Source: Macrostomum lignano (lineage: Eukaryota). Taken from it: 64,000 bases of DNA. Shown piece after piece: positions 45,019-62,729 of the stretch; the first letter of the stretch is position 1; every line of letters begins with the position of its first letter. Location: assembly GCA_002269645.1 (NCBI GenBank), contig NIVC01001530.1:209420-273419 (forward strand). The letters run 5' to 3'. A model generated the notes under the pieces. That model ran no database searches, was not told the DNA's origin, and saw only the letters and a list, made by a program, of their open reading frames with translations. The translations under genes and the position numbers were made by a program.

Positions 45019-45304
45019 AGTAGTATATAAAAAGACGCTTCTAGACCCAGAGCACTTTTTTAATGACCGTTTTAAGGGTCTAGAGGGGGGACACGGGGGG
45101 TAAATAAAAAAACACATCTAAACACCCTTAACACATCTAATCACCCATAATCACCCCTAACAATAAAAATCATTCCCAAAACTTCCAAACACTCCCCAAC
45201 ACTCCCCTCGCGTCCCCCCTCTTAAGACCTTACAAACGGCCATTAAAATAAGGTCTGATCTAGAAGCGTCTTTTTCTATACTACTACTCTATAACCCCTT
45301 GCCC
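45019..45304 (+). repeat. Left terminal inverted repeat (286 bp)
   Basis: Reverse complement of 62444-62729 with about 4 mismatches by eye. Confidence 0.95.
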
Positions 45305-45323
45305 TCTTTTTCTGTTACTAAAA

Positions 45324-45638
45324 ATGACCCGAGTTTACACCTTTTCTGTTAGTGATACTTTTGAGACTGTTGCTAAAAATGCAGAGATAATAAAACAACA
45401 TATTTTGAATGGAATAATTGATGAAGTTTATTTAAAATATGACGACAAGCACGACCTAAAACTTTATCCATTAGAGCTAGATGAGATGTATGATTTAGAA
45501 CAAGAGGGTGAGTTAATATTTCAACTTGGAGATTATTTAAATTCGGATGATTGGGAGGTTAGATCAACAGATTCCGAATCAACAAATAGTTCATATGAAA
45601 CCAGCGATTCAGAGAATGAAAGTGAAATTTTTATTTGA
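45324..45638 (+). CDS. Polinton hypothetical protein with acidic C-terminus
   Basis: 104-aa ORF with the AAAAATG start context shared by other element genes. Confidence 0.6.
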   Translation: MTRVYTFSVSDTFETVAKNAEIIKQHILNGIIDEVYLKYDDKHDLKLYPLELDEMYDLEQEGELIFQLGDYLNSDDWEVRSTDSESTNSSYETSDSENESEIFI

Positions 45639-45654
45639 AAAAAATATTTAAAAA

Positions 45655-45879
45655 ATGAATTATTATTCTATAACAGAAACGACTTTTATTATGAAAAATA
45701 TATATAAAAAAATGAAGGTAAACTATTCCTATATCGGAAATGTTCCAATTAATGAACTTAATGAAAATTTAAGTCTAATCACTGTTGAACAAATGTCAAT
45801 AATAATATTAGTAACAATTATTGTAATAATATTGTTTTTGTTTGTTATAAAAAATTTACTACCATGTTGTCTTAAGTAA
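45655..45879 (+). CDS. Small membrane protein (one TM helix)
   Basis: 74 aa; hydrophobic IIILVTIIVIILFLFVI; AAAAATG start. Confidence 0.55.
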   Translation: MNYYSITETTFIMKNIYKKMKVNYSYIGNVPINELNENLSLITVEQMSIIILVTIIVIILFLFVIKNLLPCCLK

Positions 45880-45889
45880 CTGATCGAAC

Positions 45890-46794
45890 TTAGTTTGCAG
45901 ATAATATCTGATTCTCATAAAACGAACCCAATATTTCTTCACCGTCCTTATCAGCAATTATATAGGTTGTAGGATTGGTATTTAAAACTTTACTGATAGT
46001 AAATTTCTCACTTATCTTCCAATATCCTTTTCTTCCTTTTTCAAACTTATCTTTCCATTTATAGATATAAACAGAATCACCAACCTTAAAAGATTTCTTT
46101 TTATTTTTTTCAAATTTTCCAAAAGTAACCCTAACATTTTCAGGATTGTTATAAGCTTGTTGAGGAGTCATCTTTATAGCTGAATGATATGAATTGTTAT
46201 AATCTTTCACTACGTCTGGTAATATTTTTACCCATTTTTGGTTACCATTAAGACTAAACTGAAACCATAATTTCTTACCTAAAGTTCTATTAAATCTTTC
46301 TATTAATGCGTTTTTACTCTCTCCATAAATAGAATAAATTTTATTAATATACTCCCCATTCGCGTCTTTTTTCCTTTCTTGTCCTTTTTCAAAATGATAT
46401 AATTTATACATATGAGGATTGTAAAATTCTTTTCCTTCGTCAACACACAAACGTTCGCTTTTTTCTCCAAGACTTCTAAAAGCAGCAGCAACATCCTCTC
46501 CTTTTTTGGATTTCAAAGGAACAGCCCACGCGTATCGAGTAAAACCATCTAATATGGTTAAGATATATTTATATCCTCTTTCGTTCGGCATCGACATTAA
46601 ATCAGCATACCAAATTTCATTCTTTTTGAAGTTCATGATTTTTCTATAAAATTTAGGTTTTCGATATTCTTTATGAAGAACCTTAGCCTTATCATAACTT
46701 AGCCCACTACCACTTAATAACAAACATTCGACACAATTATTACCATGTTGGTTGTAATTAATTCCTAAACCAAATTTAACTTTAGATTGTAGAA
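45890..46794 (-). CDS. Retroviral-like (rve) DDE integrase, probably the C-terminal part of a PLA2-integrase fusion
   Basis: WYADLM, ILTILDGFTRYAWAVPLKSK, CVDEGKEF, LIERFNRTL (D-D-E); SH3-like tail FKVGDSV. Frame is open up to the A-run at 46795-46800 with no ATG before the N-terminal LHKEYRKPK motif. Confidence 0.95.
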
Positions 46795-47495
46795 TTTTTT
46801 AACCATCCACCTAGTTAATCTTTGCCCTACCGATAATCCCTGCAAGTTATCTAATCCTTGAATCATTTTTTGATCGGCTTCATGTTTTAATCTTAATGCT
46901 TCCTCGGGCGGGTTCTTGTCAGCATCTCTATATGCTAAGTCGTGATAGTATGCTAACCAATCAATCCCATTTATTGGAATTGAATCAGATTTTGGGGTGT
47001 CATCAGGATTTAATCTCAAATCTAAGCGAGTCCCCGGCAGTTTACCCTCAATCTTTCGAAAGAGGCTGGAGCACACCTTAAGCGGTTAAATTACCGCCCA
47101 TCTCCGTCTGCTCTCTGAACCTTCTCCTTATATTTAAAATACTTAGGAGCTTGGCTGCGCATTGCCACCGTGTCTTCAAGCTTGTTACCATCGAACCATA
47201 GGTTCGCGTGCAAAGCACGATTGGGAAGAGGAGTTACCTCTGTTCCTTCAAAAGATTTCTCAATTGAAGTGGTACTTGAAGCTGTATGATGGGTTTCACG
47301 CAATTTGGAGATGTCGCCACAAATAGTGACTAGCAAGGACATTGCCTTCCTCACTCAGGCCGCGGGTTAACCTGTGAAGTTCATTGATGGTAGGTGTAGT
47401 TCCCCTGTATATTTACCAGTAGTAAAGATTGGTGGTAAGCTCGTTAATCCTTTTTGTAAGTCTAAAAATCCTCCTTCAAACACTATTTGGTTCAT
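46765..47495 (-). CDS. Parvovirus-type phospholipase A2 domain protein, 2 exons (47495-47370 and 47037-46765 or beyond)
   Basis: Spliced translation MNQIVFEGGF...ELHLPSMNFTG|PGTRLDLRL...IDWLAYYHDLAY...KHEADQKM restores the GPG Ca-loop and HD catalytic dyad. Confidence 0.88.
47038..47369 (-). ncRNA. Group I self-splicing intron (IC1-like), 332 nt, no intron-encoded ORF
   Basis: Exon ends in U (CAGGU) pairing with IGS GCCUG; intron ends in G. P AAAUUGCGUGAAA, Q AAUGCGCAGC, R GUUCAGAGAGCA, S AAGGUGUGCUCC. P3 CAUCUCC/GGAGAUG; P7 GAGCA/UGCUC; P5a CUUCAAG/CUUGAAG with A-rich bulge; P6a CUCCU/AGGAG; P8 GCGGU/ACCGC. Confidence 0.9.
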
Positions 47496-48044
47496 TTTTA
47501 ATAGCCTTAAAAATACATGAAAGCACCAATTGTTTCGCAAATTCTTCAATTGTTGGTTGTTTAACTTTTTTATAGTTATTATCTACGCTAGTTAAGTATC
47601 TTTTATTTCTCCAATTTTCAGACTTTTTAATCTGATCATCGTCTTTGTAACTAAATGAAGAAGCGGGATGAAATGATCAATATCTAACTTTCCAGTATAA
47701 TCTTTTGATACATAATAATTTCTTGTGAAATTTAACCAATCAAAAAAGAATTCTTTTGTGCAACCAAGATATGAGATATAGTCCTTGTCATTAAAATTTT
47801 TCAACGCCCAATTTATTCTATTTCTAATTAAAACAATATGTTTGTAATTATCATCAGTGTGATACTTATTTTTTCTATATTCATTCCATTTATCTTTATT
47901 GTTTTTTATCCAAATAGCAGATGAGGTATTATGACAAGATCGACAATCATTTCTAAATTTTTTTGAATCATTTCTCCAAAAATAAAATTCTTTCGTCATC
48001 GGTTTTTCTTGTTTACACTTAGTACAAATCTTATTAGTTTCCAT
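47476..48044 (-). CDS. HNH-family endonuclease with N-terminal zinc finger (1-nt frameshift near 47660)
   Basis: CTKC...CRSC; YLGCTKEFF..W; LDIDHFIPL. Adding one T extends the frame to SSFSYKDDDQIKKSENWRNKRYLTSVDNNYKK..., completing an HNH/HNN-like fold, with the stop at 47476. Confidence 0.7.
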
Positions 48045-48071
48045 TTTATAAAAAATAAATTTAACAATTAA

Positions 48072-48737
48072 TTAAACACCAGTATGTCCAGCAGCTTTCG
48101 CAGCAGCTAAAACAAGTTTTCGTGGTGTTTTAAATCCATCACCAACAGCTGGTTTGTTATTTATAGAATTAACAATCCTTTTATACAAGCTGGTATTTTT
48201 AACAGCTCCTCCTAACTCATCATAAAAAATTCTAGCACTTATTAATTCATCCCTAGTATATAAATCAGGGTTAAACTTTACCCTAGGGTTCATAACAATA
48301 TTATATGCTCCACCCAATTCTCTATATAGTTCATTTCGATTTTTATCAACTCCACCAATTCGATAATTATTATTACCTAAATCTGTCGCAGCAATACTAG
48401 CTGGTACTCTTGGATATTGTTCCCGATCGCCCCGCTCTGCACGTCTAATCTCTGCAATTCTCAATTGTGCTTGATCAACATCATAAGCAGGCGGCTCATC
48501 CAAAATTTCATCCTCTTTTGGCTCAGTATTTTTAGCAATTTTTTCCAGAAGATCTTTATCTGTTTTTTCTAGTTCACTAATTTTCCCAGTAATAGGATTA
48601 ACAAAAGGAGCAGCAAATCTTTCACCCGCTAATTGTATTCCTAACTTTCTTTTTTGTAAATTTCTAACAAAATCAGAATATCTTTGCTTCTCTTTATAAA
48701 TCGCTAACTCTCCATCAACGTCCATAAATTGACTCAT
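48072..48737 (-). CDS. Polinton hypothetical, probably a virion core protein
   Basis: 221 aa; AAAAATG start; PITGKISEL segment; VGDGF protease-site-like motif. Confidence 0.6.
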   Translation of the reverse strand: MSQFMDVDGELAIYKEKQRYSDFVRNLQKRKLGIQLAGERFAAPFVNPITGKISELEKTDKDLLEKIAKNTEPKEDEILDEPPAYDVDQAQLRIAEIRRAERGDREQYPRVPASIAATDLGNNNYRIGGVDKNRNELYRELGGAYNIVMNPRVKFNPDLYTRDELISARIFYDELGGAVKNTSLYKRIVNSINNKPAVGDGFKTPRKLVLAAAKAAGHTGV

Positions 48738-48771
48738 TTTTTAACATAAAAAACTTTTTTAACTTAAAAAA

Positions 48772-50244
48772 ATGGCTGAAACAAAAACTATGTGGAGTGA
48801 TAAATTTCATTTCAAAAAGCACCGACAGTATATTAATGAGGTCAGAGCAAGAGATTTAAATTATACCCTACCAACAAGTGATAATTCAAATAACTTTACT
48901 ACTGGAACGGTAACTTTTGACATCGGCGCAACCAACACTATATTGGATATGAAAAATGCGTTTTTCCGCGTTAGATGGTTGTATACTAGAAATGATGGAA
49001 CTGCTCTTGCAGCCGGAGATATCGCAGATCGATCCAGAATAATAATAGAAAATGATTGGTTTTATAAATGTTTTTCCCAAGCTCAACTAACTGTTAATGG
49101 TGCTGAGGTTGAGACATCATCAAACCCCGCAGAGATTAATGGAGTTTTGAAACATTTAAATTATACTTATTTATCAAAACAAGTTGGTGATAATGTTGGG
49201 TGGATGCCGGATAAAGGTAACGGGCAAGCAGTAGTTTTCCCTAATGTACAAAACGCAGCCGGTGCAGATACTGCAGCGCTAATTGTTTACCTTAATACAA
49301 ACATAGTTCCAGTTGTAACCACTATGACTAATACAAAAGATATTAATACTGGTTTTATAGATCGTCAGAATAAATTCCCAGTCGCGGTTTTAACCACAGC
49401 AACAGCATATGAGCAGGACTTTTCAATCTTTCCACTATTTGGGTTTTTCTCACCAAATCGGGTATGGAAAGGATTAAAATTTGGGATACAGTTGCAAATA
49501 TCTGGTGGATATCAGCCTAGGATACTTTATGGAACCTCAATTTCAACCGATATAGCAGTTCGTATAGATTCAATTCAATTAGTCGTACCAACTATTGAGG
49601 TAACAGCCCCACTTTTAAAACACATCGATAATCAGTTAACGCATGATCAGGAAATATTTTATTTGAATCGTCGACATTTTATGCGAACCATTAATAATAA
49701 CCAGGATTCATTCCAGTGGCAAATACTGACATCAAAACGTCGGGTGAGATATATTTTTGTTTGGTTTAAGATAACAAATAGAAGGAGTAAAAGAGCAAAT
49801 GGGGATTTATATTGGCTTCAATCCGGTGCCATAGCAGAACAAGCAGCCACCGCAACAGACAATGCGGCTGCAGCTATTAACGAGTTTAATGTTCAGAATA
49901 TCCGCCTGCAGGTTGATGATCAATATTATCCGGTTAAAGACCCCCTAAATTTAAATATAGCAAATAATAATGTTAATGATTTTATAAAATATTATCAAGA
50001 TTATGCTAAAAATGAAGCGTATGCCGTCCCTCAGTACACACCCACAGAGTTTCTAAACATTCATCCAGTGGTTGTTTATGATCTAACGGCACAGAAAGAA
50101 AACGTAGCCAATATTGGACTTAATTATATGTTAGAGATTAATAAAACCGGTAATCAGGCACTTGACGCCCACGTATTGTTTCTAGAGGAATATATGTCAA
50201 TTGCTAAAGCTGATGGCACGATTGTTCGGGACGCACCATTGTAA
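48772..50244 (+). CDS. MCP: Major capsid protein (double jelly-roll)
   Basis: Intact 490-aa beta-rich ORF; FYKCFSQAQLTVNG..VE motif; IRLQVDDQYYP; lies beside ATPase, penton and protease genes. Confidence 0.85.
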   Translation: MAETKTMWSDKFHFKKHRQYINEVRARDLNYTLPTSDNSNNFTTGTVTFDIGATNTILDMKNAFFRVRWLYTRNDGTALAAGDIADRSRIIIENDWFYKCFSQAQLTVNGAEVETSSNPAEINGVLKHLNYTYLSKQVGDNVGWMPDKGNGQAVVFPNVQNAAGADTAALIVYLNTNIVPVVTTMTNTKDINTGFIDRQNKFPVAVLTTATAYEQDFSIFPLFGFFSPNRVWKGLKFGIQLQISGGYQPRILYGTSISTDIAVRIDSIQLVVPTIEVTAPLLKHIDNQLTHDQEIFYLNRRHFMRTINNNQDSFQWQILTSKRRVRYIFVWFKITNRRSKRANGDLYWLQSGAIAEQAATATDNAAAAINEFNVQNIRLQVDDQYYPVKDPLNLNIANNNVNDFIKYYQDYAKNEAYAVPQYTPTEFLNIHPVVVYDLTAQKENVANIGLNYMLEINKTGNQALDAHVLFLEEYMSIAKADGTIVRDAPL

Positions 50245-50328
50245 AATGAGTGCAGTGCAAAGCACGTCGCACCACTTTAGTGTCGCAGGTCTCCGACCGT
50301 CGCGCCTATTTAAATTATTTCTTTAAAA

Positions 50329-51142
50329 ATGGTAAAGGCAAAACACAATAAAATATTTCCAAATGATCCTTTTCTTTGTTTAGTAATCGGAGGATCAGGT
50401 AAAGGAAAAACACACTTTGTTTACGATTTATTAACAACAGATGGAATGTTAGACTATAATAATTTAATAATTTATACTAATAAACCTAGAATAAAATATT
50501 ATGAATTTCTTAAACATGGATTAAAAAACAAATTAAAAAAAGATGTCTTGTTTAGAATGTTAAGAGCATATGAGCAATATGAGGATGATGACGAACCGCG
50601 ATTTAATCTAGCAGACATTGAGGATTTATGTAAAACAATGGCACAACAGCCAGAAAACATCACCGATCGCCCCGAAGGGTCGCGGACTTCGTCCGATCGC
50701 GCCCCAACTGTTAGAGTATCAACCCGATTAGCCTATGATCAAATTCCAAAAATGATAAAACACTAATTATTTTGATGATTGTATTAATGACGGTGATCAA
50801 GAATTGCAAAAGGAAATTTTTGTTAGTGGTAGAGGAGATGGAATTGGAGCTTTTTATCTTACTCAATCCTTTAGAGAATTAGAATCGATTATAAAAAAGA
50901 ATGCTAGCTGTTGTGTAATGTTTGATTTAGATAACTATGATCTACAAAATATTCACGCTAGATTTAATCCCGGATTGGATGCAAAACCATTTAAAAGTAT
51001 GTGTAAAAAAATTTGGGATGATAGCCAATACAAACATATTTATATCAATCCGAGGTTAGAAAGGAAACATAGAATTTTAACAAATTTGATAAAAGAAGAT
51101 AATGAGGAAGAGAGACATAGCACGCGGACTTCGTCCGATTAA
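50329..51142 (+). CDS. A32/FtsK-like DNA packaging ATPase (frameshifted near 50750-50775)
   Basis: Walker A IGGSGKGKT; Walker B LIIFDD recoverable after two homopolymer corrections; SGRG and YLTQS motifs. Confidence 0.88.
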
Positions 51143-51157
51143 TTTCCCACTATAAAA

Positions 51158-51941
51158 ATGACTACAAATTTAAATACTATAAAACAATTGGTAGATCGAA
51201 CTAATTCAAAATTTAGTACAACATTACAGTTTATAATGACAACCAGCGAGCAACGGATTCAATTGCGCGATCCATTACAACTTGATCAAAGCCTAAGTTA
51301 TCAAATAGGTTTAATTCTATTTTCGGTTTTCAACATGCCTCAATTAATTAATGCAACAAATAATCAATTTAGATATTCTAAAGATTCCGGAGCCAATTGG
51401 ACAACATTTAGCGTTAACCCAGGAGCGTATAGCTATACTGATTTGAATGCTTATATAGAAGGAGAATTAACAACTAATGGTGATTGGGTAGCAGGAGCAA
51501 TTGTTATAGGTGTTGATTTACCGTCTGGCAGATTCACACTATCACTAGGATCCGGATATCAGGTTGATTTCACAATTGCAAATTCACTCAGAACCATACT
51601 TGGATTTAATTCCCGAATAGTTACCACATCAAGCACCGGTGATACAGTGGAAATATTGAGGGTGGAGTAATACAATTAATATAACAACCGACATATCAAA
51701 CGGCGGTTATATAACAGATAATAATGGAGTTTTGGTTCAACGTGGAATTATTTATTCAATCCCATTTCTTGCTGTTCCAATTGGAGAGAAAATGATTGTT
51801 GCACCTCAAACCCCAATATATTACCCATTAAATCAATATAATGTTCAATCAATTTATATTAGGATTGTAGATGAAAGCGATAGATTAATAAGTTTTGGTG
51901 GGCAGTCAATAACAATAATTTTACGTATAAAACAGGTTTGA
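51158..51941 (+). CDS. Minor capsid protein (penton), frameshift near 51655
   Basis: ORFs 51158..51670 and 51732..51941; C-terminal IYIRIVDESDRLISFGGQSITIILRIKQ resembles Polinton pentons. Confidence 0.75.
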
Positions 51942-52164
51942 TCGAACCTTTGGTTCGCGGACTTTGTCCGTTTCCTATAGTAAAAATGGGTAATAATAAT
52001 AATTTACTAAAAAAACAATCAGAAAAAGTTAAAAAAAGCTGAAGATAATTACGAACTAGAACTAGCAAAATTAAGGCAGTTACAAGCTGATAAAATAAGA
52101 AAGGAATTGTTAAAACCCACACCTACGAAACTAACTAAAACCAAGAGTTTTTCAGGAACATAAA

Positions 52165-52630
52165 ATGACCATGACGTGGGATGATTTTAAACAAAGATAT
52201 GGAACGGACACAACAAGCAATATCGAATTAACAAATTGGGCGAGGCAGTTAAAAATAAAACCATTCAGATGTGTTATGCGAGATGAGATCAAAGACTTAC
52301 CAAATATGGATCTTTCATTGTTAATATTGAAACAACAAAAGAAAATGGTGTTCATTGGTCGGCAGTTTATTCAAACCTAAACTTGTTTATTTTTTTGATT
52401 CATACGCGCTTCCTCCGTTACAGGAAATAAAAGACAAATTTAATCATACTAAAAATCGTTTATGTGGAGATCATCACGAACAATTTCAAACCTTTGATAA
52501 AAGTTATTGCGGGCAAGCGGCGTTGTATTTTTTATATAAAATTAATAACTCGAAGGAAACCCCCGAAGTATTTAAGAATATCATGCAAAGCATGCGACCC
52601 TACGGGGCGATTTTAGACTCTATAAAATAG
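52165..52630 (+). CDS. Adenain-like cysteine protease (frameshifted)
   Basis: GVHW (alternate frame near 52350), YFFDSYA, FQTFDKSYCG: His-Asp-Gln-Cys catalytic order. Confidence 0.85.
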
Positions 52631-52640
52631 ACAGTAAAAA

Positions 52641-54620
52641 ATGTTATTTTCTGGAACACCCTCATGGAACGGAACAACAAGTAGTGGTGGTGGTGGCACA
52701 TCTGGTGGAATAAGTGTTACATTTGGAGATAATCGATATATTAATGAGGGATGAAGGTTATAAAAAAAGTGAAGTTGATACTAAACTAAATTTAAAAAGA
52801 AATGTTGCAGATTCCTATACTAAAACTCAAATCGATGATTCACTAAATCTGAAACGGAACGTAGCCGATTCCTATACCAAAACCGAAGTTGATAATTCAT
52901 TAAATTTAAAACGCAATACAGCCGATTCTTATACCAAAACCGAAGTTGATAATTCATTAAATTTGAAACGGAACGTAGCCGATTCTTATACCAAAACCGA
53001 AGTTGATAATGGATTAAATTTAAAAAGAGATGTAACTGATTCTTATTCTCGAACTGATTCTGATTCACGTTATGTTCAAACCACCGCAACCGGAAACCTA
53101 GATATGAGCAACAACCGAATTATAAATGTTTCAATTACAACTAGTGATTCAGTGGTTGATAAGAACTATGTCGATAATCAAGTTGCCACTCGTAGTGGTA
53201 ATATTAATATGAATAATTTTAAATTAACAAATTTATTATTTGGAACAGAGAACGCAGACTCGATAACTCTAGGCCAAGTAAACGAGCGAGCTAATGCAAC
53301 CGACGCCGATATTTTTACCACGCCGCTTACATCAAATACTTCAAATCCTGATGTTGTTCTTACAGCATCTGAAAATGGCAACACAGCTTTTCGAGTTGGA
53401 GATGGAAGCCTTGCGACACAATGGTCACCAAATACCGGAACCACAACCAATATGGAAATTCAATTTGAATTTTTAGGTTATAATAGAAGAATATTTGAAT
53501 TAAGAATTACAGGCAGTGAAACAATTGAGATACCCTCGGGGTGGTCGGTTCGCGCAAAAAATGTTGCTACCGATTCATGGACGACATTAACTACGTCGGG
53601 ATCACCAGTTCAAGCAACATCATTTGCTCTATCTAATTTAACGACTAATTTTTGGAAATATTATAGCGTATTCTTCCCAACTGGTGGTACCGGTACACAA
53701 CCTATCGAGGTTCGTCAAATACAATTATTTGAACACCGTGTTGAAATTCAAGATCTTAATTGGCCAACTCAAATACTTTCTGCAGTTCCGCGAGCGTACG
53801 TAGATCAGCTAGCTACTCCAACATCAAATGGTAGAATGTCTGGAAGCGATAAAAATAAATTGGATGGAATACCTGCTATTGATGCGGCCTTGTTCGAACC
53901 AGTAATTTGCAATTGGTCTGGATATCAAAATCCAACAACCGCCGGAGATATATATCCAGTCGGTTCTTTAATTGGTGACGCTTCTTATATCGATTATCAA
54001 AACGGCGCTAGAATTACTCGTGAAACTCTGGAGTAAGTGGTGCTTTACAATTCAATTTCACACATTTTCAAAATATATCTGCGTCTTTCTTTTTCCGAGT
54101 TGCTAATTCTACAGGAGATGGTGCAGATGCGGTTTGGTTTTATGCATACTGTCACCAACGTCCAACATCGGAATTTGGAACTGGATTATCAACCGACGCC
54201 GGATGATAGTTTTGCTAGTGAGTGGATGATAGGTTTGGAGTTGTTTGGAGTAATAAAAAATCAGACGGATCAAGCCGCGATGTTAATACTGCGCGATCAA
54301 ACTGTAGCCTATGCTAATATTGATAACGGCATTGGCATTTATTTGAAGTTAATATTTTAAATCAAAGGGTTTGGTACCGATTACAGTCATACAATGTTGC
54401 TGGTGATTCTTTTACCCTCATTGGACAGAACGTTTTCACATATGATAGTGGAACTTGGGGAACTTTAGATAAATCTGGAACCCTTATGGGTTTTGGTGCT
54501 CGAACTGGTGGAGCGGATGCTGCACATTTTATTCGTGGTGCAGTTGTATGTGGTAGTACGTCGTTTGGTTATGTTTTTCCCTCTACTGCTTATTTGGAAA
54601 AACCTCCTACTCAAATATAA
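52641..54620 (+). CDS. Fibre/spike-like protein: repeat shaft, discoidin-like domain, L-type lectin-like domain (several frameshifts)
   Basis: About 5 copies of KRNVADSYTKTEVDNSLNL; AFRVGDGSLATQW...IQFEF; across frameshifts GDGADAVWF and GFGARTGGA..AHFI, ending at TAA 54620. Confidence 0.65.
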
Positions 54621-54651
54621 AATATTTATATATAAAATATTTCTATATAAA

Positions 54652-54951
54652 ATGGCTTTTAGTAGAACTCCATCGATGCGGCAAAATAATGTTATTATTC
54701 CTATTCCTAAACAAGAATCAAATATAAAAACATTCAAATCTCATACCAAATTTTTATTTAGTACTGTAAATGTTCAGGATAATAAGAAGCTTCAAGAATT
54801 AATTAAGTTATTAAAAAATCATATTATACTTCAAGAGTTTTGGAAAATAGGATTTAAATGGGAGAAAAAAGAAAGAATAACTCCAATACAATACCTATTG
54901 AGCTCGGGACAAATCCCAAAGAGCGCGGGGAATTCATTTTGGTGCTATTAA
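54652..54951 (+). CDS. Hypothetical protein (99 aa from ATG 54652)
   Basis: TAAAATG start context inside ORF 54493..54951. Confidence 0.5.
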   Translation: MAFSRTPSMRQNNVIIPIPKQESNIKTFKSHTKFLFSTVNVQDNKKLQELIKLLKNHIILQEFWKIGFKWEKKERITPIQYLLSSGQIPKSAGNSFWCY

Positions 54952-54963
54952 AAATAGACGAGA

Positions 54964-55602
54964 ATGTCGGTATCTGAAGCAGATAAATGGGAACGCGACC
55001 GGTTCAACCAACGTAAAGGTCAGATGTTAAGTAATGTTGATCGTATTAACTATGATTATGATTTATATGCTAAAAAAGTAAGAAGAGTTTCAAACCATAT
55101 AAGAAATATGGACTTTTTCAATATTGGATTTGGAAGCTTATCAATGTTATGTGTAATCGTTTTAGGTATTTTACAATCTATTCCAACTCTTAATTTATCT
55201 CAATTATTTTTAGGTATTTCAATTGGCTCAATATCAGGTTTTGAATTGATCAGGAACTTATCAATACTTTTAGCAATTAAATTATATCTTAAAAAAAGAA
55301 AGGAAAAATATAAATCTTTAAGAGATGTTGCAAAACAATATAAAAATCAATTATATTTATATGTGCAAAAAATATTGGATGACGGAGAGATAACGATTCA
55401 TGAATTATCAACCGCGGTTGAATTATATGAAAAATATTTAAAAGATAGAAATAGAATTTTAGATGTTGAAACTTTTACCGATATGGAATTAAAAGAGTTG
55501 AGACTCGATAAACCCAAAGCTCCACCGATAGAAACATTAGGCATTTACGAACCTGAAACTATTGCTACTGGGGCACAAAGCCCGCGGTCAGGAAGTGCGT
55601 AG
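54964..55602 (+). CDS. Two-TM membrane protein with helical C-terminal domain
   Basis: 212 aa; two adjacent hydrophobic helices followed by a Lys-rich helix and KILDDGEIT. Confidence 0.65.
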   Translation: MSVSEADKWERDRFNQRKGQMLSNVDRINYDYDLYAKKVRRVSNHIRNMDFFNIGFGSLSMLCVIVLGILQSIPTLNLSQLFLGISIGSISGFELIRNLSILLAIKLYLKKRKEKYKSLRDVAKQYKNQLYLYVQKILDDGEITIHELSTAVELYEKYLKDRNRILDVETFTDMELKELRLDKPKAPPIETLGIYEPETIATGAQSPRSGSA

Positions 55603-55636
55603 AACTTCAGGTTGTTTAGTTTTTCTAATGCATATG

Positions 55637-56098
55637 TTATATATTCTTCCCAAAGTGGTAACTCTCTTCTGATCTAGGTTTAAATTTTTTATCAATACAT
55701 AAAAATTCCAATGACTTTTTCAATAACATTTCGTTAGGTATGTTACCTATCCTTATAAACTTTGTATTCTCTCGAATAAGAAAATTGAAATAATATCCAA
55801 CTAAAATTAAAATCCTTTCAGAGTCTTTCGAACTTAATCCCTTTCCTTTATTTAAATGGAAAAAGTTATTATATAAATAAACATTATTTCCGGGAATTAA
55901 AATTGGATCAGAAATGTCTCTTGTAAGATTTCTTAAAATTGTGTTTTTAAAATAGTAATATGAGTTTTCAATCTTTTTTGTTTTTTCAAATTGATATATT
56001 TTAGAACATGAATAACACATATGATATATATCTCCGTTTGCTGTTTGCCCTCTGTGCATAGTCACATTACATTTATTACAAACATAAATGTCTTTCAT
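55637..56098 (-). CDS. Zinc-ribbon hypothetical protein
   Basis: CNKC...CYSC; AAAAATG start. Confidence 0.55.
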   Translation of the reverse strand: MKDIYVCNKCNVTMHRGQTANGDIYHMCYSCSKIYQFEKTKKIENSYYYFKNTILRNLTRDISDPILIPGNNVYLYNNFFHLNKGKGLSSKDSERILILVGYYFNFLIRENTKFIRIGNIPNEMLLKKSLEFLCIDKKFKPRSEESYHFGKNI

Positions 56099-56124
56099 TT
56101 TTTTGTTATTTTTTTAGATTAAAA

Positions 56125-56457
56125 ATGGAGAGCTGGTTCAAAACCGATTCTAATGTGATTAATTATCTCACACCCAATATGTTGGAGAATAAAGAATATA
56201 ATATTATATGTTTGAGACAGGTTAAATTTATTGGGCTTCAATCAATATTTTTACAATTAGATGGGCAAAAAATTTTATGTCTAAGCGGAGATGATGTTAA
56301 AAATTTTCCTGTTTTAGTTATTAATAAACCTAAAGCGTTTGTTATGAAATACTGCAACGAGGGTGGATTGCAATTTAAACTAAAACAAACAAATAATAAA
56401 AAGAGTGATAGGACTGTAAAATTGGCGGCTGTTTGGGAGGATGACGACGAAGACTAA
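56125..56457 (+). CDS. Small protein, possible OB-fold ssDNA-binding protein
   Basis: 110 aa, beta-strand pattern, acidic tail WEDDDED, near pPolB. The fold assignment is inference. Confidence 0.45.
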   Translation: MESWFKTDSNVINYLTPNMLENKEYNIICLRQVKFIGLQSIFLQLDGQKILCLSGDDVKNFPVLVINKPKAFVMKYCNEGGLQFKLKQTNNKKSDRTVKLAAVWEDDDED

Positions 56458-56472
56458 ATTTTTTATAAGAAA

Positions 56473-56832
56473 ATGGATACGATAAAAATCCTTATCACTA
56501 AAGAGCGTGAACTTAATGATATTAATAAAAAAATAAATATAATTATATCTCAGAAATATCATGAGTATGGGGACGATATGTTTCCCATCCGATATGAGAT
56601 AGATAAAAGAAAACGTTTTTTAAGACAAGATATTGTTTATGCTGAAATAGTAATTGAAATTGAAATAGATAGATTGGTTAGAAAAATAAAAAAACTTAGG
56701 AAAAAAATAAAGGATTGTTTAAGTTACCCTGCCGACTGTGAGGATAATTGGTGCTCAATAATATATGAAATTGAAGTTAATGATTTGCTCAAACAATTAC
56801 ATGCTTTAGTTTTTTACAGACCCGATAAGTAA
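56473..56832 (+). CDS. Hypothetical coiled-coil protein
   Basis: 119-aa ORF, AAAATG start, convergent with pPolB. Confidence 0.5.
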   Translation: MDTIKILITKERELNDINKKINIIISQKYHEYGDDMFPIRYEIDKRKRFLRQDIVYAEIVIEIEIDRLVRKIKKLRKKIKDCLSYPADCEDNWCSIIYEIEVNDLLKQLHALVFYRPDK

Positions 56833-59800
56833 TTTTTCTGTTAATCTCTTCCAGTTATTCAAGACTTTTTCCTTATTTAATTTTTTAAGTTCTTTTGGAA
56901 ATGTTGAATAATAATTATCTATATCTTTTTCATATTCTAGAAATGTATTATATTCACAATCACATTCGGATTCACAATCACAATCGTAATAATAATTATT
57001 TATTGCCGCTTTGTATTCATTATATTTACTTATTATATCTTCTTTTTGTTTTTTATCTTTTATCATATTTTTTATCTCTTCTTTTAAACCATATGGATAT
57101 GTTTTAATTTTATCATCTAAATATCTTTTATCATCAAATGGACTTAATGTTTTTTTATCTGTCTCGATGACAAACATCTGATGCTTATCTGAATTTAATC
57201 GATATTGTGGAGCATGATAATTTTCAATTGTATTAAGGTAATCTAAAAGTACGTTTTTATAATCATCAAATGTTATCTTTTTTACTGCTGCTCTTGATAC
57301 CCCTTTTATTTTTTTTACCTCTCCCTCCTGTCCTAAAACCTTAAATGCATAGCATTTTGATCTTATTGCTATAAACTCGGTTATGATTTTGCTATTTAAT
57401 TCATCTTTCATTTTAAGTACAACTTTTTTATTTTGATCTGATTTTAAAGGATGGTTATCCGGATAGTCGGAGGTATCCAATGTATCCTTAATTTTTTCCA
57501 TATCTTTATAGACATCGAACCTTTGGTTCGCGGACTCCGTCCGGTCATCTGTTTCAACCTTAAATACCAAACTGTCGGTGTCTGCATATATTGGATAGTT
57601 ATCTGGCCATGTTTTATTTATAACATCATAATAGTATTCATACATTACTAGCTTTGCAAATCTAAAACAACCATTCCAATAAATATTGGTTTAAGAAATT
57701 TTGTTGTTTTATTTCTCATATGAATACCCATAAAGTTATCATCAAATTTTATAAAGTCTTTAAAGTTAGGTTTTGAGAAATATTTCTTTGCTTTATCAAT
57801 ATCCTTTTCTAAATGGAATTGGGTTCTATCTCTAATATTTTCAACCGTTTTTCCATAAAAAGCATTATTCATTAATTTCCAATAATCTTTCTCAAAATTT
57901 GTTTTTGACATCTGTCTCTGATTTGAATTAAAGTCAATATATTTAGCTAACCAATCTTCCTCAATAAACGATATTGTTCGATGTACTTTAGACACTTTTA
58001 ATCCCTGCTTTTCATAAAATTGTAGAAGCTTATAATGCACTACATAGTTTTTCTTATCATGTAAATTTAATATTAATTTTTTTGTTGCTAGATGTTTTGC
58101 ATTATCTACTTTAAGATAATCTTTTTGTGTTTGTGATAAATCATCTTCATTAACTGAACAATGCTCTGGAGCTAAAGGATATTTATATGTTTTTGCTTTT
58201 GCTTCCCGAGTATATTGCAAATCCACTTCTACGATACAGCCCCTTCCTTCGGGAATATTTTTGTAATAATCGGGGTCATCTTCCCATTGGAAATCAGCTA
58301 TTGGTAATTTTTGTTTCATACAACCACCGTATAAATTGTTTGCATCTAGATATAATACATATGATGATTTTTCTTTTTTATTATAATTTGGTAGATATTT
58401 ATTATTTACTTTAGTATATCTATCTCCTAGTACACCCGAGAATCCACCGCGAATTCCTCTCTCAATCATTAACAACATATCATGATCAGTTAGTAAATCA
58501 ATCTTAACATCTGTATGTTTCAAACCACAAGCCCATGTTAATCCCGGTGCACTGAAACAATATGCGGGATCAATTTTAAAATTCTCATATGTATGATTCC
58601 TAAAGTTTTCAAATGCATCAGCTAATAGGAGAACATCTGCTTTAAGATATAGATTATGATAATCTTTAAATGTTTTACAATTAAAGTATTTCCATACTTT
58701 TTGAGCGTGTTCATAATCCGATTCACTTATGTTTGTTTGTGATAATGTTGAATAAAACTTTTCAATTGGGGGTAATTCGGTATGAAAAAATACGTCTTCA
58801 GATGTTACATATTCATATGGATAGATGCCCTTACGAGTTAATAGCATTAGTTCTTCCTCGGATAGTTTTTCTTTTTGAAACGATTCAATAGTATTGGAAA
58901 GTTTTTCTTTACTATTTCTAAATCCCATGGTTTTGGAACTAATGATGAAACAACATTTGCTAAAGATGTTGATAAGAATCTCAAGGAATCTAGAAAAACT
59001 AGATGGGAGTATTTCTTACCATATGTTATTGATATGTAATTTTCTGATGTTTTAGGTAATATATTTATTTCATATTCATCCTTTCCTAAATGAAGCAATT
59101 CTCGAACTAAGAAATGAAAATCATATCCGGAACCATTATGAAAAAATACTGGTATTTCCTTACATCCTTTTCCTTCTTTTGCATTACATGATCTACATGC
59201 TGCCCCTCGATAATTTCCTGTTAGATGACAATGTTCTCGTATCTTATTATTCTTACTTAAATGTCTTTTGCACATAAAACAATTTGTTGCATTTTTATAA
59301 TTGTCTCTATCCTTATTTGTCATATTAATATTTTTTGATAATTTATCATATTGATTTTGAATATATTCAAATACATTTACTAATGATTCTGCCATGTGCT
59401 TAGCTGCATCATTACCGTGGTAAGTAATCATCCTTGATTTAAATATATGATCAGCTACAGAGTGTACATATATACAATAACTATTCGGAAACTGTTGTGC
59501 CAATTTTTTTGTGCATTCACCGTCATCAGATACCGTCTGTGATTCTTTTAAGGGAACATTTGTTGCTTCAAAATCAGCATATATTACTATTGGTTTTTTA
59601 ACTGCCATATAATGTTGTTGGAACTTTAGGGTTGCATCTTCAGATGCTGGCATTATAGCATTAGTAAATTTGTGATCTAAACAAAATCGTTGGTGGTTTT
59701 TAAGAGCTGTTTCATCCTTTTTAAATGTAAAACAATTTCTACATAGTGGATATCTATTTCTATTTTCTCTTAAAAAAGAACTAATATCTTTTATGTATAT

Positions 59801-60767
59801 ATAATGTGTTTCATTTTCGCGCTGCATGTACAAAAGATCGATTTGATCTGGTGCTGTTATATCAGTTGCTGGCTTAACAAGATAACACCTTTTCTTATAC
59901 CATTCTGGATCGGTTAAAATTTCTTCTAGATCTTTTGGTTCTTCAATTGTAAACACATTAATATTTAAACCATTCATTTTTTCAATCTTATATATATCAT
60001 CTATTGCTACTGGGTATGATATGTTTTTCATTATTATTTCATCCTCATATTGTCTATAATTATATATTTTATTAATGTGTGATTCTACTTGATTGTGATA
60101 TTTATGAATTAATAAACACCATAATAAACATTTATTATCTTTATTGTCTGGATTTATAATCATAGGTGATTTAAATTTGAGCTTCATATGTGATCGTCCT
60201 TTAAGAATTTCTATGGTGCAATCTTTACTATTGCTGAATTACAGGATACAAATATAAACCCAGATCCGTTTTCTGTCATCTTATCTATCCATTCATCAAA
60301 CTCAGCTTCTATTTGATCGAATTGATTGTTGTAATTTCCCATTGATAATAATGTTTTATATGATTCTTGTGAAAAGTTATTTATTACTTCAATTTCTGAA
60401 TTTGCATTAAGAATATTTGGTTTTTTAAATTCTGTTTCAACTTCTATTTTATACTTAATTGGCTGTCGTTTGTTATTTGGCCTTATAGTATAATTGTTTA
60501 ATATGTCTTTAATTTATCTTTCATTTGTTTAAAATATTCTTTATAATTTGTATTTATATCTATATCTATATATATTACTTCAGCTCCATTTTGTCCTTGT
60601 GGTTGGGGGTTATTAATATCATTTAATTGTCTTTCTAAACGTATCTCATTTTCTGCCCTAATTCTTGCTTCTATTTCAGCCCTATCGGCAATTCGTTGTG
60701 CATCGATTTGAGCTATTAATTGCGCTCTAAGTTCAGGGTTGTCGATTTGAGCTAAAATTGCTTCCAT
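56806..60767 (-). CDS. pPolB: Protein-primed family B DNA polymerase with endonuclease VII-like insertion (split by several 1-nt indels)
   Basis: IYADFE; FFHNGSGYDFH; FLDSLRF; RKGIYPYEY; YLDANNLYG; KLMNNAFYGK; YADTDS; KCYA..K.KGV; CFMC...REHCHLTGNYRGAACRSCN. Confidence 0.95.
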
Positions 60768-60850
60768 TTTATAGAATAAAATTTATATAATGTTTGAATT
60801 ATTGATTTTTTAATTTTGTGTTTTTGGTGTCCAGACCCTCCCCCAGGAGC

Positions 60851-61834
60851 CTATTCGAGATCTGCTTTTGGTAATAGCAATCCATTGCCCATAACGTTTG
60901 AATTTAAGAAAATTCCTGAACCTGCTTTTGGTCGCATTTCGAGATATAATCCGCTTCCGTCGTGTTTTTCAATGATATTAAAATCTTTTCCTAATTTATT
61001 AAAAATTTCTGAACAGCTGGTCTAAAATTGGATCCAATATTGTCAAAAAATCCTTTAGCTTTCTCACCCGTTTTTTCTAAAGTTTGACCAAATTCATGTA
61101 GTTTATCTGCGACAACTCCACTTCCTTGGGTTGTTCCTTTTAGTACCAAACCATTCCGTGATTTGTTCCTTGCAAGAGTAAACCTTTTCCGGCTGCTAAC
61201 CTAGCTTCTGCATTTCTTTTTTGCTCTGCTGTTGCTGAACTACTATTAATGGTATCAATAAGTTTCTGTTTGAATTGTGCGTCCTGCGTTATTTGCTGTC
61301 TTTGAAATTCGGCCTCTCTTTTAGCTTTTTCGTCCGCAGCTTTTTTGTCATTTACTGCTTTTGCAATTCCAGCTGCTCCGCCAGCAACTCCTCCAGCTGC
61401 TCCAATTCCTGCAAAAATTATTGGGAGCAAAGCTGCAAGGGGCAAGATTCCCCCTGTTTCGCTCTTAACTCTCCTAGCTGTTTTACATTATCATGAATTC
61501 TTTTTCCGGCTAAACCGACTGCTCCAGCTGCGCCAAGTCCTAAAAGAAGCGGTAGAATGGGTAGTAATCCGCCGTCCTTTTTAGTGTGAGTCTCCATTAA
61601 AAATTTCACATCGGAGTCTGTCAACCTATAATTTCTGCCGCGATTCTTAAAGGATATTGGCCTTCCTTCTTGTGCATATTTTGCTGCGAGTTTAAATGTA
61701 TCGATGTCGTAGTCAAACTTTTTACCTAATCGATCCAATCTTTTTAACATTGTGTGGCTATGTTTATTATCATCTAGATCTAAAGTATCTACAATTTCTC
61801 CTATAAAATATAAGCGGTCGTTATCTGTGTCCAT
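60851..61834 (-). CDS. Probable core/cement polyprotein with many GxG/GG protease sites (2 frameshifts)
   Basis: ORFs 61418..61834 and 61140..61445 plus a downstream frame join after +1 corrections; DGGLL, TGGIL, GKGL, GNGL, GSGV, GSGL, GSGI, GNGL. Confidence 0.6.
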
Positions 61835-61844
61835 TTTTATATTG

Positions 61845-62241
61845 TTAAAATTTCTTTAATCCTTTTCCACCTTTAATAGTATTTAACATTTTATTAAAAT
61901 CCTGAATATCTTTATTACTTATTGGTGCGCTTTTCGTGGGGGTTTCTGTTGGTTGTGCGGCTTGTGCCAGCTTTAAATCTTTTATTGCATTTATTTGTGA
62001 GAGGGTGTCGTTAAAATCTCTCAATTTCTTTAGTTCTTCTGCCGCTCTAGCTGCTTCAATTCCTCCTTTTACAGCATTTGTTATAGAGCCTGCTGCAGAG
62101 CCAGCTTGCCCTATAAGCCCCATATTGTCTTTAACAAAATTTGCTGCTGTTCCAACCACATCAAAAGCCCCTCACCTCGGTATTCAACTGGGTCTCCTAC
62201 CTGCATTCATTCAGATTTTGCATATGTGTAACGTGTGTCAT
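61845..62241 (-). CDS. Probable virion core protein
   Basis: ORF 61845..62159 extends upstream through RGEGLFD after correction to AAAAAATG at 62241; C-terminal KGGKGL. Confidence 0.55.
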
Positions 62242-62443
62242 TTTTTGTTCTATTTTTAGTAACAGAAAAAGATTGTCTGCATTCCATTTAGACCAGATTT
62301 TAGACCAAATTTTTGAAAACGAAAACCAAAACGATAGTCTAGTTTTGTTTGGTCTAAAATCTGGTCTAAATGGAATGTTGGGTGGGTAGGTGAGCTGACT
62401 ATAAATAGCTTCTATTCTTTCCGACCCTTCGCGCCTGCGGCGC

Positions 62444-62729
62444 GGGCAAGGGGTTATAGAGTAGTAGTATAGAAAAAGACGCTTCTAGATCAGACCTTAT
62501 TTTAATGACCGTTTTTATGGTCTTAAGAGGGGGGACGCGAGGGGAGTGTTGGGGAGTGTTTGGAAGTGTTGGGAATGATTTTTATTGTTAGGGGTGATTA
62601 TGGGTGATTAGATGTGTTAAGGGTGTTTAGATGTGTTTTTTTATTTACCCCCCGTGTCCCCCCTCTAGACCCTTAAAACGGTCATTAAAAAAGTGCTCTG
62701 GGTCTAGAAGCGTCTTTTTATATACTACT
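62444..62729 (-). repeat. Right terminal inverted repeat (286 bp)
   Basis: Ends TATATACTACT; matches the left TIR. Confidence 0.95.

Follow-up and report, generated by a model that had tools for sequence, protein, structure and literature searches.

A candidate GGNCC-cutting, Eco47II-like nuclease as mobility partner of a group I intron in the PLA2-integrase gene of Macrostomum lignano Polintons

A Polinton of Macrostomum lignano carries a group I intron in its PLA2 gene, and the mobility partner of this intron is probably a PD-(D/E)XK nuclease related to Eco47II and EcoO109I that would cut GGNCC or a site with a GGNCC core. This reading is built on the family and fold of the nuclease, its occurrence in two positions (free-standing upstream of PLA2 and within the intron), the purge of GGNCC from both Polinton families concerned and the splitting of a Gly-Pro GGNCC by the intron. 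The preliminary description of the locus had proposed a two-part homing system made of the intron and the free-standing HNH nuclease gene next to it; a free-standing nuclease beside an ORF-less intron does fit the locus, but the evidence favours the Eco47II-like protein as the nuclease involved. More tentatively, and with some doubt about the picture as a whole, this protein may be a mobile GGNCC-cutting weapon that operates without modification. Its site would have been purged to the point that even Gly-Pro is avoided, the one site forced by protein sequence would be masked by a self-splicing intron, and the same enzyme would serve as homing endonuclease, would have moved between intron and slot and would now be in the course of displacement by HNH; group I introns, many of them perhaps splicing with a terminal A, would then reside in a protein-coding gene of an animal nuclear genome.

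The Polinton and its interrupted PLA2-integrase gene

The window (the whole stretch of 64,000 nucleotides that was analysed) contains the following features.

45019..62729, no strand assigned: whole Polinton, 17,711 bp (17.7-kb), without any GGNCC
45019..45304, no strand assigned: left terminal inverted repeat, 286 nt, beginning AGTAGT
45890..47037, minus strand: PLA2 exon 2, continuing as the rve integrase; the window copy has a frame break near 46,800
47038..47369, minus strand: group I intron of type A without an ORF, 332 nt long, located between the codons for Gly and Pro and splitting GGNCC
47370..47495, minus strand: PLA2 exon 1, 42 codons, the last being the Gly of the calcium-loop Gly-Pro; gives the 5' strand of P1
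47476..48044, minus strand: zinc-finger and HNH nuclease gene in the swappable slot, start at 48044
48072..48737, minus strand: conserved 221-aa ORF, upstream limit of the swappable slot
62444..62729, no strand assigned: right terminal inverted repeat

A 6-bp target duplication flanks the element outside both terminal inverted repeats, and Pfam matches were obtained for the rve integrase and, weakly, for the A32 packaging ATPase, a combination that identifies the element as a Polinton/Maverick. The capsid, penton and pPolB ORFs were labelled from the gene layout and from resemblance, the capsid and pPolB labels having no Pfam match behind them. Frames are broken in several genes of the window copy, so that the protein work drew on natural copies of the same genome in which the frames are open. 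The genome gave 86 Wnt matches, some of them on contigs (C506, C952) that also carry intron-bearing copies, which indicates that the host of the introns is an animal. An ORF of the polymerase region (window 58847-60187 and L183:6070-9897) contains an Endonuclease_7 (HNH-type) insertion, of a kind already described in the pPolB2 that Polintons of nematodes and oomycetes carry.

PLA2 exon 2 and the integrase form a single open frame in 87 of 136 copies, and an intron-less ORF of a sister Polinton family (family 2, the window element belonging to family 1) matches both PF08398 and PF00665. The in-frame fusion of PLA2 to an rve integrase was seen in these two families (window 45890-47495; L182:7350-8705) and on a metagenome contig, L184.

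The window intron matches RF00028 with 58.7 bits (gathering score 50), and its boundaries, 47369-47038, were fixed by comparison with intron-less alleles. In 12 chosen copies of this type (type A), 98% of the helix cells are paired and six pairs are changed on both sides; P1 and P7 are conserved, with compensatory changes in P2, P3 and P9. Type A is a group I intron, and joining of the exons by self-splicing is predicted from its sequence. Contigs of four sequencing runs presumed to be RNA contained no exon-exon joint at the intron, a result that does not bear on splicing. As the preliminary description had it, the intron holds no endonuclease gene: the ORF list of the 332-nt intron contains no nuclease. 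An 83-codon open frame crosses the ribozyme core (window 47091-47342, minus strand) and resembles the C-terminal tails of intron-borne nuclease ORFs; it may be what is left of an intronic ORF since lost.

The last base of the intron is G in the window copy and in L154 and L184, and A in 84 of 116 type-A copies (for example L004, L029 and L053). The terminal A casts doubt on the splicing of those 84 copies. Their P7 G-site is unchanged; they may be omega-A introns of natural origin or alleles with impaired splicing.

A second, different group I intron (type B) occupies the same 5' site in 24 loci, including L040, L087-L092, L103 and L120-L123. Its helices were drawn by complementarity only, it gave no Rfam match, and by its motifs it is presumably IE-like. 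In-frame exon 2 begins with Ala-Gly-Leu in the type-B copies, so that Gly-Pro is lost even after splicing. It should be noted that a scan with intron motifs returned five loci, none with an Rfam match, and that a junction pattern modelled on the window allele returned no match because the intron-less alleles differ upstream.

The Eco47II-like nuclease and the GGNCC word

In 37 family-1 copies the slot upstream of PLA2 holds an Eco47II-like gene encoding 167 aa. Pfam RE_Eco47II (PF09553) matched all 13 aligned members of this protein group, the intronic ORF scoring above the Pfam cut-off and the free-standing alleles below it, and the Atlas cluster neighbours of the protein are Eco47II and EcoO109I. 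The structural model (pLDDT 89) found its best fold in EcoO109I (Z 9.8, 162 residues aligned, rmsd 3.5), AvaII ranking lower. Profile and PD-(D/E)XK fold thus both place the protein in the PF09553 family, and an extra DNA-binding domain was not seen in the 167-aa model. The frame is open in 26 of the 37 free-standing copies, and dN/dS among the family-1 alleles is 0.19-0.27.

In family 2, an ORF 61-66% identical to the slot protein lies inside loop P2.1 of an intron at the same PLA2 site (read in L154). At least 28 family-2 copies probably contain this intronic nuclease, this being the number of full-length ORFs among 41 matches (best 40 of 276 candidates scored), and these 28 largely coincide with 28 Rfam intron matches. 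Intron-less family-2 junctions numbered 19 among 66 pattern matches, with one further variant. The Eco47II-like nuclease was not found in cis with an intact site: no free-standing Eco47II-like gene lies beside an intron-less junction (0/37, a count not significant alone), and the nuclease is absent within 3-4 kb at all eight intron-less family-2 loci that were read. The composite form, with the nuclease inside the intron, exists. The last bases of exon 1 differ between intron-bearing and intron-less family-2 alleles, as co-conversion or P1 pairing would require.

The same composite arrangement was found on the metagenome contig L184, where the nuclease lies inside an intron at the same site of a PLA2-integrase of 35% identity. 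Of 24 environmental homologs, 13 continue into the core of an intron, another 8 are fragmentary and the other 3 stop earlier; no relative of the gene was detected in the viral contigs searched. The intronic state in these 13 homologs, in family 2 and in L184 suggests that it is probably older than the free-standing one, the tree of the nuclease being unrooted with an unresolved base and the direction of movement being read by parsimony only.

The element ORFs scanned and the contigs with nuclease matches yielded no C5 methylase, and 12 matches to PF00145 are all on contigs absent from the nuclease match list. The linked cognate methyltransferase of a type II restriction-modification system was therefore not found.

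EcoO109I recognises RGGNCCY and AvaII GGWCC, and the codons of Gly-Pro always spell GGNCC. This word was present at all 11 intron-less junctions read, and GGNCC at the intron insertion site is the predicted target of the Eco47II-like nuclease, going by its family. Homologs of Eco47II have been assigned GGNCC 'without certainty' (PMC10305163), and Sau96I has been used for this site (PMC9465063).

The abundance of GGNCC was compared with the counts expected from dinucleotide shuffles. The window element has none against 19.9 expected, and five other family-1 elements have 2, 2, 0, 0 and 0 against 20-23; both elements with two sites have one of them at the PLA2 junction. Two family-2 elements have 2 against 13 and 2 against 15. 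By contrast, the third Polinton, which is the sole control element, has 20 against 26, and the host stretches have 33 against 41, 16 against 13, 20 against 19 and 10 against 20. Repeat-rich host stretches gave 11 against 34 and 5 against 15, and host DNA is mildly short of GGNCC in some of the tests. (Six loci taken as additional control Polintons turned out to be host DNA.) GGNCC was the most depleted of the 256 abNcd words in the three family-1 and family-2 elements ranked, and not in the controls. Intron-bearing loci, which are related copies, contained no site in 96,698 and in 252,928 bases.

The depletion reaches the proteins, since Gly-Pro occurs 0-1 times per element as against 2-13 occurrences of Pro-Gly in the larger stretches. 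It is also seen with the proteins held fixed and synonymous codons shuffled, GGNCC then numbering 0 against 3.7, 0 against 5.3, 1 against 6.9 and 1 against 6.2, as compared with 11 against 11.8 in the control element and a milder deficit, 20 against 31, in host ORFs. The control belongs to a third Polinton family (L174-L175, G000:C273), which has a stand-alone, intron-less PLA2 and appears to be inserted in or beside a family-2 copy.

Under the mechanism that we favour, the nuclease would cut, during co-replication, any element that still carries GGNCC. In intron-less siblings the cut would fall at the PLA2 junction, and repair with the carrier as template would bring in intron and nuclease by homing and co-conversion; unrelated rival DNA with many GGNCC sites would be destroyed. 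Carriers would be protected without a methylase, none being needed because the removable sites are gone and the site that the protein sequence imposes is split by a ribozyme, which would restore the mRNA. The near fixation of the intron in family 1 would make the nuclease dispensable in cis, and the HNH gene, now in about three quarters of the family-1 copies, could take over the slot. The GGNCC-rich host nucleus would not survive a cutter that needs 5 bp alone, and it has to be assumed that expression is limited, that there is a cytoplasmic or lytic stage, or that the true site is longer.

A longer site is central to the main alternative, in which the Eco47II-like protein is a long-site homing endonuclease and the purge of GGNCC was imposed from outside, for example by the restriction system of a helper giant virus or of a rival element. 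Host toxicity would then pose no problem, and precedents exist for both halves of the argument, in the long sites of known PD-(D/E)XK homing enzymes (I-Ssp6803I, 17 bp; PMC3424549) and in the restriction-modification systems of giant viruses (PMC7253447). Intron-less family-2 copies without the nuclease are GGNCC-depleted as well, as an outside enzyme would predict, but no such depletion is seen in the third Polinton, which shares their host. The explanation moreover needs a coincidence between the outside enzyme, the family site of the nuclease and the insertion site, and a protein of 167 aa without an extra DNA-binding domain speaks against a long site. We therefore consider it unlikely.

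The HNH gene and the occupancy of the slot

The preliminary description placed the stop of the zinc-finger and HNH gene across the PLA2 ATG, about 110 nt from the intron, and this geometry was confirmed: the two genes share 20 nt, between the stop (47476-47478) and the PLA2 ATG (47495), and 106 nt separate the stop from the 5' splice site (47370|47369). The Eco47II-like gene usually has its stop there too, however, which makes the overlap with the start of PLA2 a property of the slot and not one specific to HNH.

The frame of the window copy is broken near 47,660, leaving a 150-aa ORF, whereas natural copies elsewhere in the genome have an open ORF of 189 aa (range of open ORFs 189-206 aa); the frame is open in 69 of the 101 HNH loci fetched. 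The ORF bears a CxxC...CxxC zinc finger, and an alignment of 43 relatives shows no variation at H124, N147, N156 and K159. PHROG profiles of endonuclease VII/HNH match the protein with E 1e-5 to 1e-11; Pfam HNH gave no match in the natural alleles scanned and weak matches in 3 of the 43 relatives. In the AlphaFold model (pLDDT 92.8), strands 120-124 and 148-152 are followed by a helix at 153-159, and alignment and model together give the beta-beta-alpha module with a catalytic His and two Asn. The HNH fold expected of the 189-aa protein is supported by the invariant H-N-N motif and by the PHROG matches, and less so by the fold comparisons, in which the nearest structures are HNH domains but the matches are weak (no Foldseek E <= 0.001; Z <= 5.6).

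A profile search returned 16,747 relatives of the HNH protein, a word-index search returned no homolog, and the sole notable match of the PDB sequence searches was a weak one to the Hpy99I zinc finger. HNH domains in Polintons are already known (bioRxiv 2023.08.22.554363). The gene is under purifying selection (dN/dS 0.23-0.64), and its alleles are mosaic, identity averaging 62% over the N-terminal half and 80% over the core.

To relate slot and intron, 157 loci were fetched, namely those behind all 132 HNH matches and PLA2 loci from the best 150 of 479 candidates. Four loci whose stretch had HNH but lacked PLA2 were excluded, and L026, which has two units, entered the count once; the copies are related, some are probably assembly duplicates, and the counts are not independent. 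Among the 101 family-1 copies with HNH in the slot, 82 have intron A (two of them seen at the 5' end only), 16 have intron B and 3 are intron-less. The 37 copies with the Eco47II-like gene comprise 30 with intron A, 7 with intron B and none without an intron. Two copies, both intron-bearing, have a non-nuclease ORF in the slot, and the occupant is unclear in three. The difference in intron-less copies (3/101 against 0/37) is not significant (Fisher p = 0.56), the intron being near fixation in family 1. The third slot ORF is no nuclease but a paralog of part of the upstream gene; it encodes a 153-155-aa paralog of a variant domain of that gene and is followed by an HNH remnant (L117:1516-1980, L119, L067, L083).

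Contrary to the expected co-occurrence, HNH was found with intron A, with intron B and with no intron, and the intron is also present in 39 copies without HNH. Two of the intron-less copies (L055 and L067) carry an open HNH ORF with intact motif in cis with an intact PLA2 junction, and one of these two ORFs shares 88% identity with the window type. Close to the junction, the intron-less carriers show base differences. HNH and Eco47II-like carriers share exon-plus-intron sequence of up to 99.8% identity, for both intron types, and no flanking column in the aligned family-1 copies is linked to the type of slot. These near-identical backgrounds indicate that the slot reassorts independently of the intron. 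Neither the HNH matches nor the loci read placed HNH inside the intron or in family 2. With three different occupants next to the intron, open HNH genes beside intact junctions and free reassortment, the linkage expected of an HNH-intron pair is lacking; largely, HNH is present regardless of the intron.

These results bear on the proposal that HNH is a collaborative homing endonuclease, cutting intron-less PLA2 and spreading with the intron, the three intron-less carriers being resistant or silent. The intron does accompany HNH in 98 of 101 copies, but it is near fixation whatever the slot contains. The motif is intact and under purifying selection, yet two such open ORFs, one of them 88% identical to the window type, stand in cis with intact junctions. 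The variation of the intron-less carriers near the junction would suit resistance, and the end of the ORF does lie 106 nt from the insertion site, but slot and intron reassort freely and HNH was seen neither inside the intron nor in family 2. Since the proposal also leaves the purge of GGNCC unexplained, we hold it to be quite unlikely. A housekeeping function in packaging or genome processing, the place beside the intron being incidental, is very improbable: a packaging role has been proposed for an HNH gene adjoining the ATPase in a PLV (PMC12220804) and the HNH family is very large, but the gene is missing from 39 family-1 copies, was not seen in family 2, and has mosaic alleles as competing selfish nucleases do.

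The mosaicism and dispensability of the HNH alleles fit an independent, competing selfish nuclease. HNH is probably a free-standing homing gene with another target that competes with the Eco47II-like gene for the slot; it may also play a secondary part at the insertion site of the intron.

Comparison with known mobile introns and restriction systems

In the collaborative homing of phages, a free-standing endonuclease cooperates with a group I intron that lacks an ORF (Zeng 2009, Bonocora and Shub 2009, via PMC3984707 and PMC11296320). The present system resembles it in the nuclease beside an ORF-less intron, in an insertion site that coincides with the predicted target and in a composite intron at the same site. 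It differs in belonging to a eukaryotic virus in an animal genome and in a nuclease from a type II restriction family whose 5-bp core site is purged from the whole element. It also differs in the presence of both states of the nuclease in one host; most relatives are intronic and the free-standing form may be derived, which is the reverse of the proposed path. The two states at one site make the pathway to mobile introns, and its direction, directly testable.

The Eco47II-like protein shares Pfam family and fold with Eco47II/Sau96I (GGNCC) and EcoO109I, and its likely role, the exclusion of rival DNA, with the restriction-modification systems of chloroviruses and marseilleviruses (PMC7253447). 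The differences are that the search found no cognate methylase, that avoidance of the site and the intron appear to provide the protection, and that the gene is carried by an intron and is much shorter. A restriction-fold nuclease encoded in a group I intron recalls I-Ssp6803I and I-Bth0305I, but these belong to other families, occur in bacteria and phages and have long sites, and the available text notes no purge of sites (PMC3424549).

Group I introns have been reported in Polinton-like viruses of the protists Paulinella, Desmodesmus and Rhodomonas (PMC12220804). Those introns likewise match RF00028, measure about 300-380 nt and lie inside integrated Polinton-type viruses, but they come from a few protist groups and the available text names no endonuclease or PLA2 site for them, whereas here the host is an animal and a candidate partner nuclease is present. 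The element itself is comparable to the Adintoviruses and Polintons with PLA2X (PMC8502044), animal Polintons with a parvovirus-like PLA2, an integrase, an ATPase and terminal repeats, and differs from them in a PLA2 fused to the integrase and split by a predicted self-splicing intron; the words 'HNH' and 'endonuclease' are absent from the main text of that paper. No description of this nuclease-intron system was found in the literature searched, a scope outside which most subscription papers and the repeat databases fell (see also PMC8395846; 10.64898/2026.10.13.758929).

A 2013 review describes nuclear group I introns as confined to the rDNA of microbial eukaryotes (PMC3679873), as against well over 100 copies here in a protein-coding viral gene of an animal genome. 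If the enzyme does cut GGNCC, the system would exemplify self-protection from a restriction enzyme without methylation and would imply that animal Polintons meet and recombine as co-replicating viruses; it would further make available for study a restriction-type nuclease of very small size, along with naturally occurring ribozyme variants of the omega-A kind.

Some minor features of the elements and their surroundings were also recorded. CCNGG is about two-fold depleted in family 1 and not in family 2, possibly a trace of another nuclease. One family-1 copy is interrupted inside its Eco47II-like gene by three tandem RING-like cysteine-rich ORFs (L190:2056-4191). The window Polinton is adjoined by about 20 kb of strongly skewed tandem repeats (window 24000-45000), and window 1-24400 holds a host cluster of ABCA-type transporter genes, whose exons are long, together with an F-box gene.
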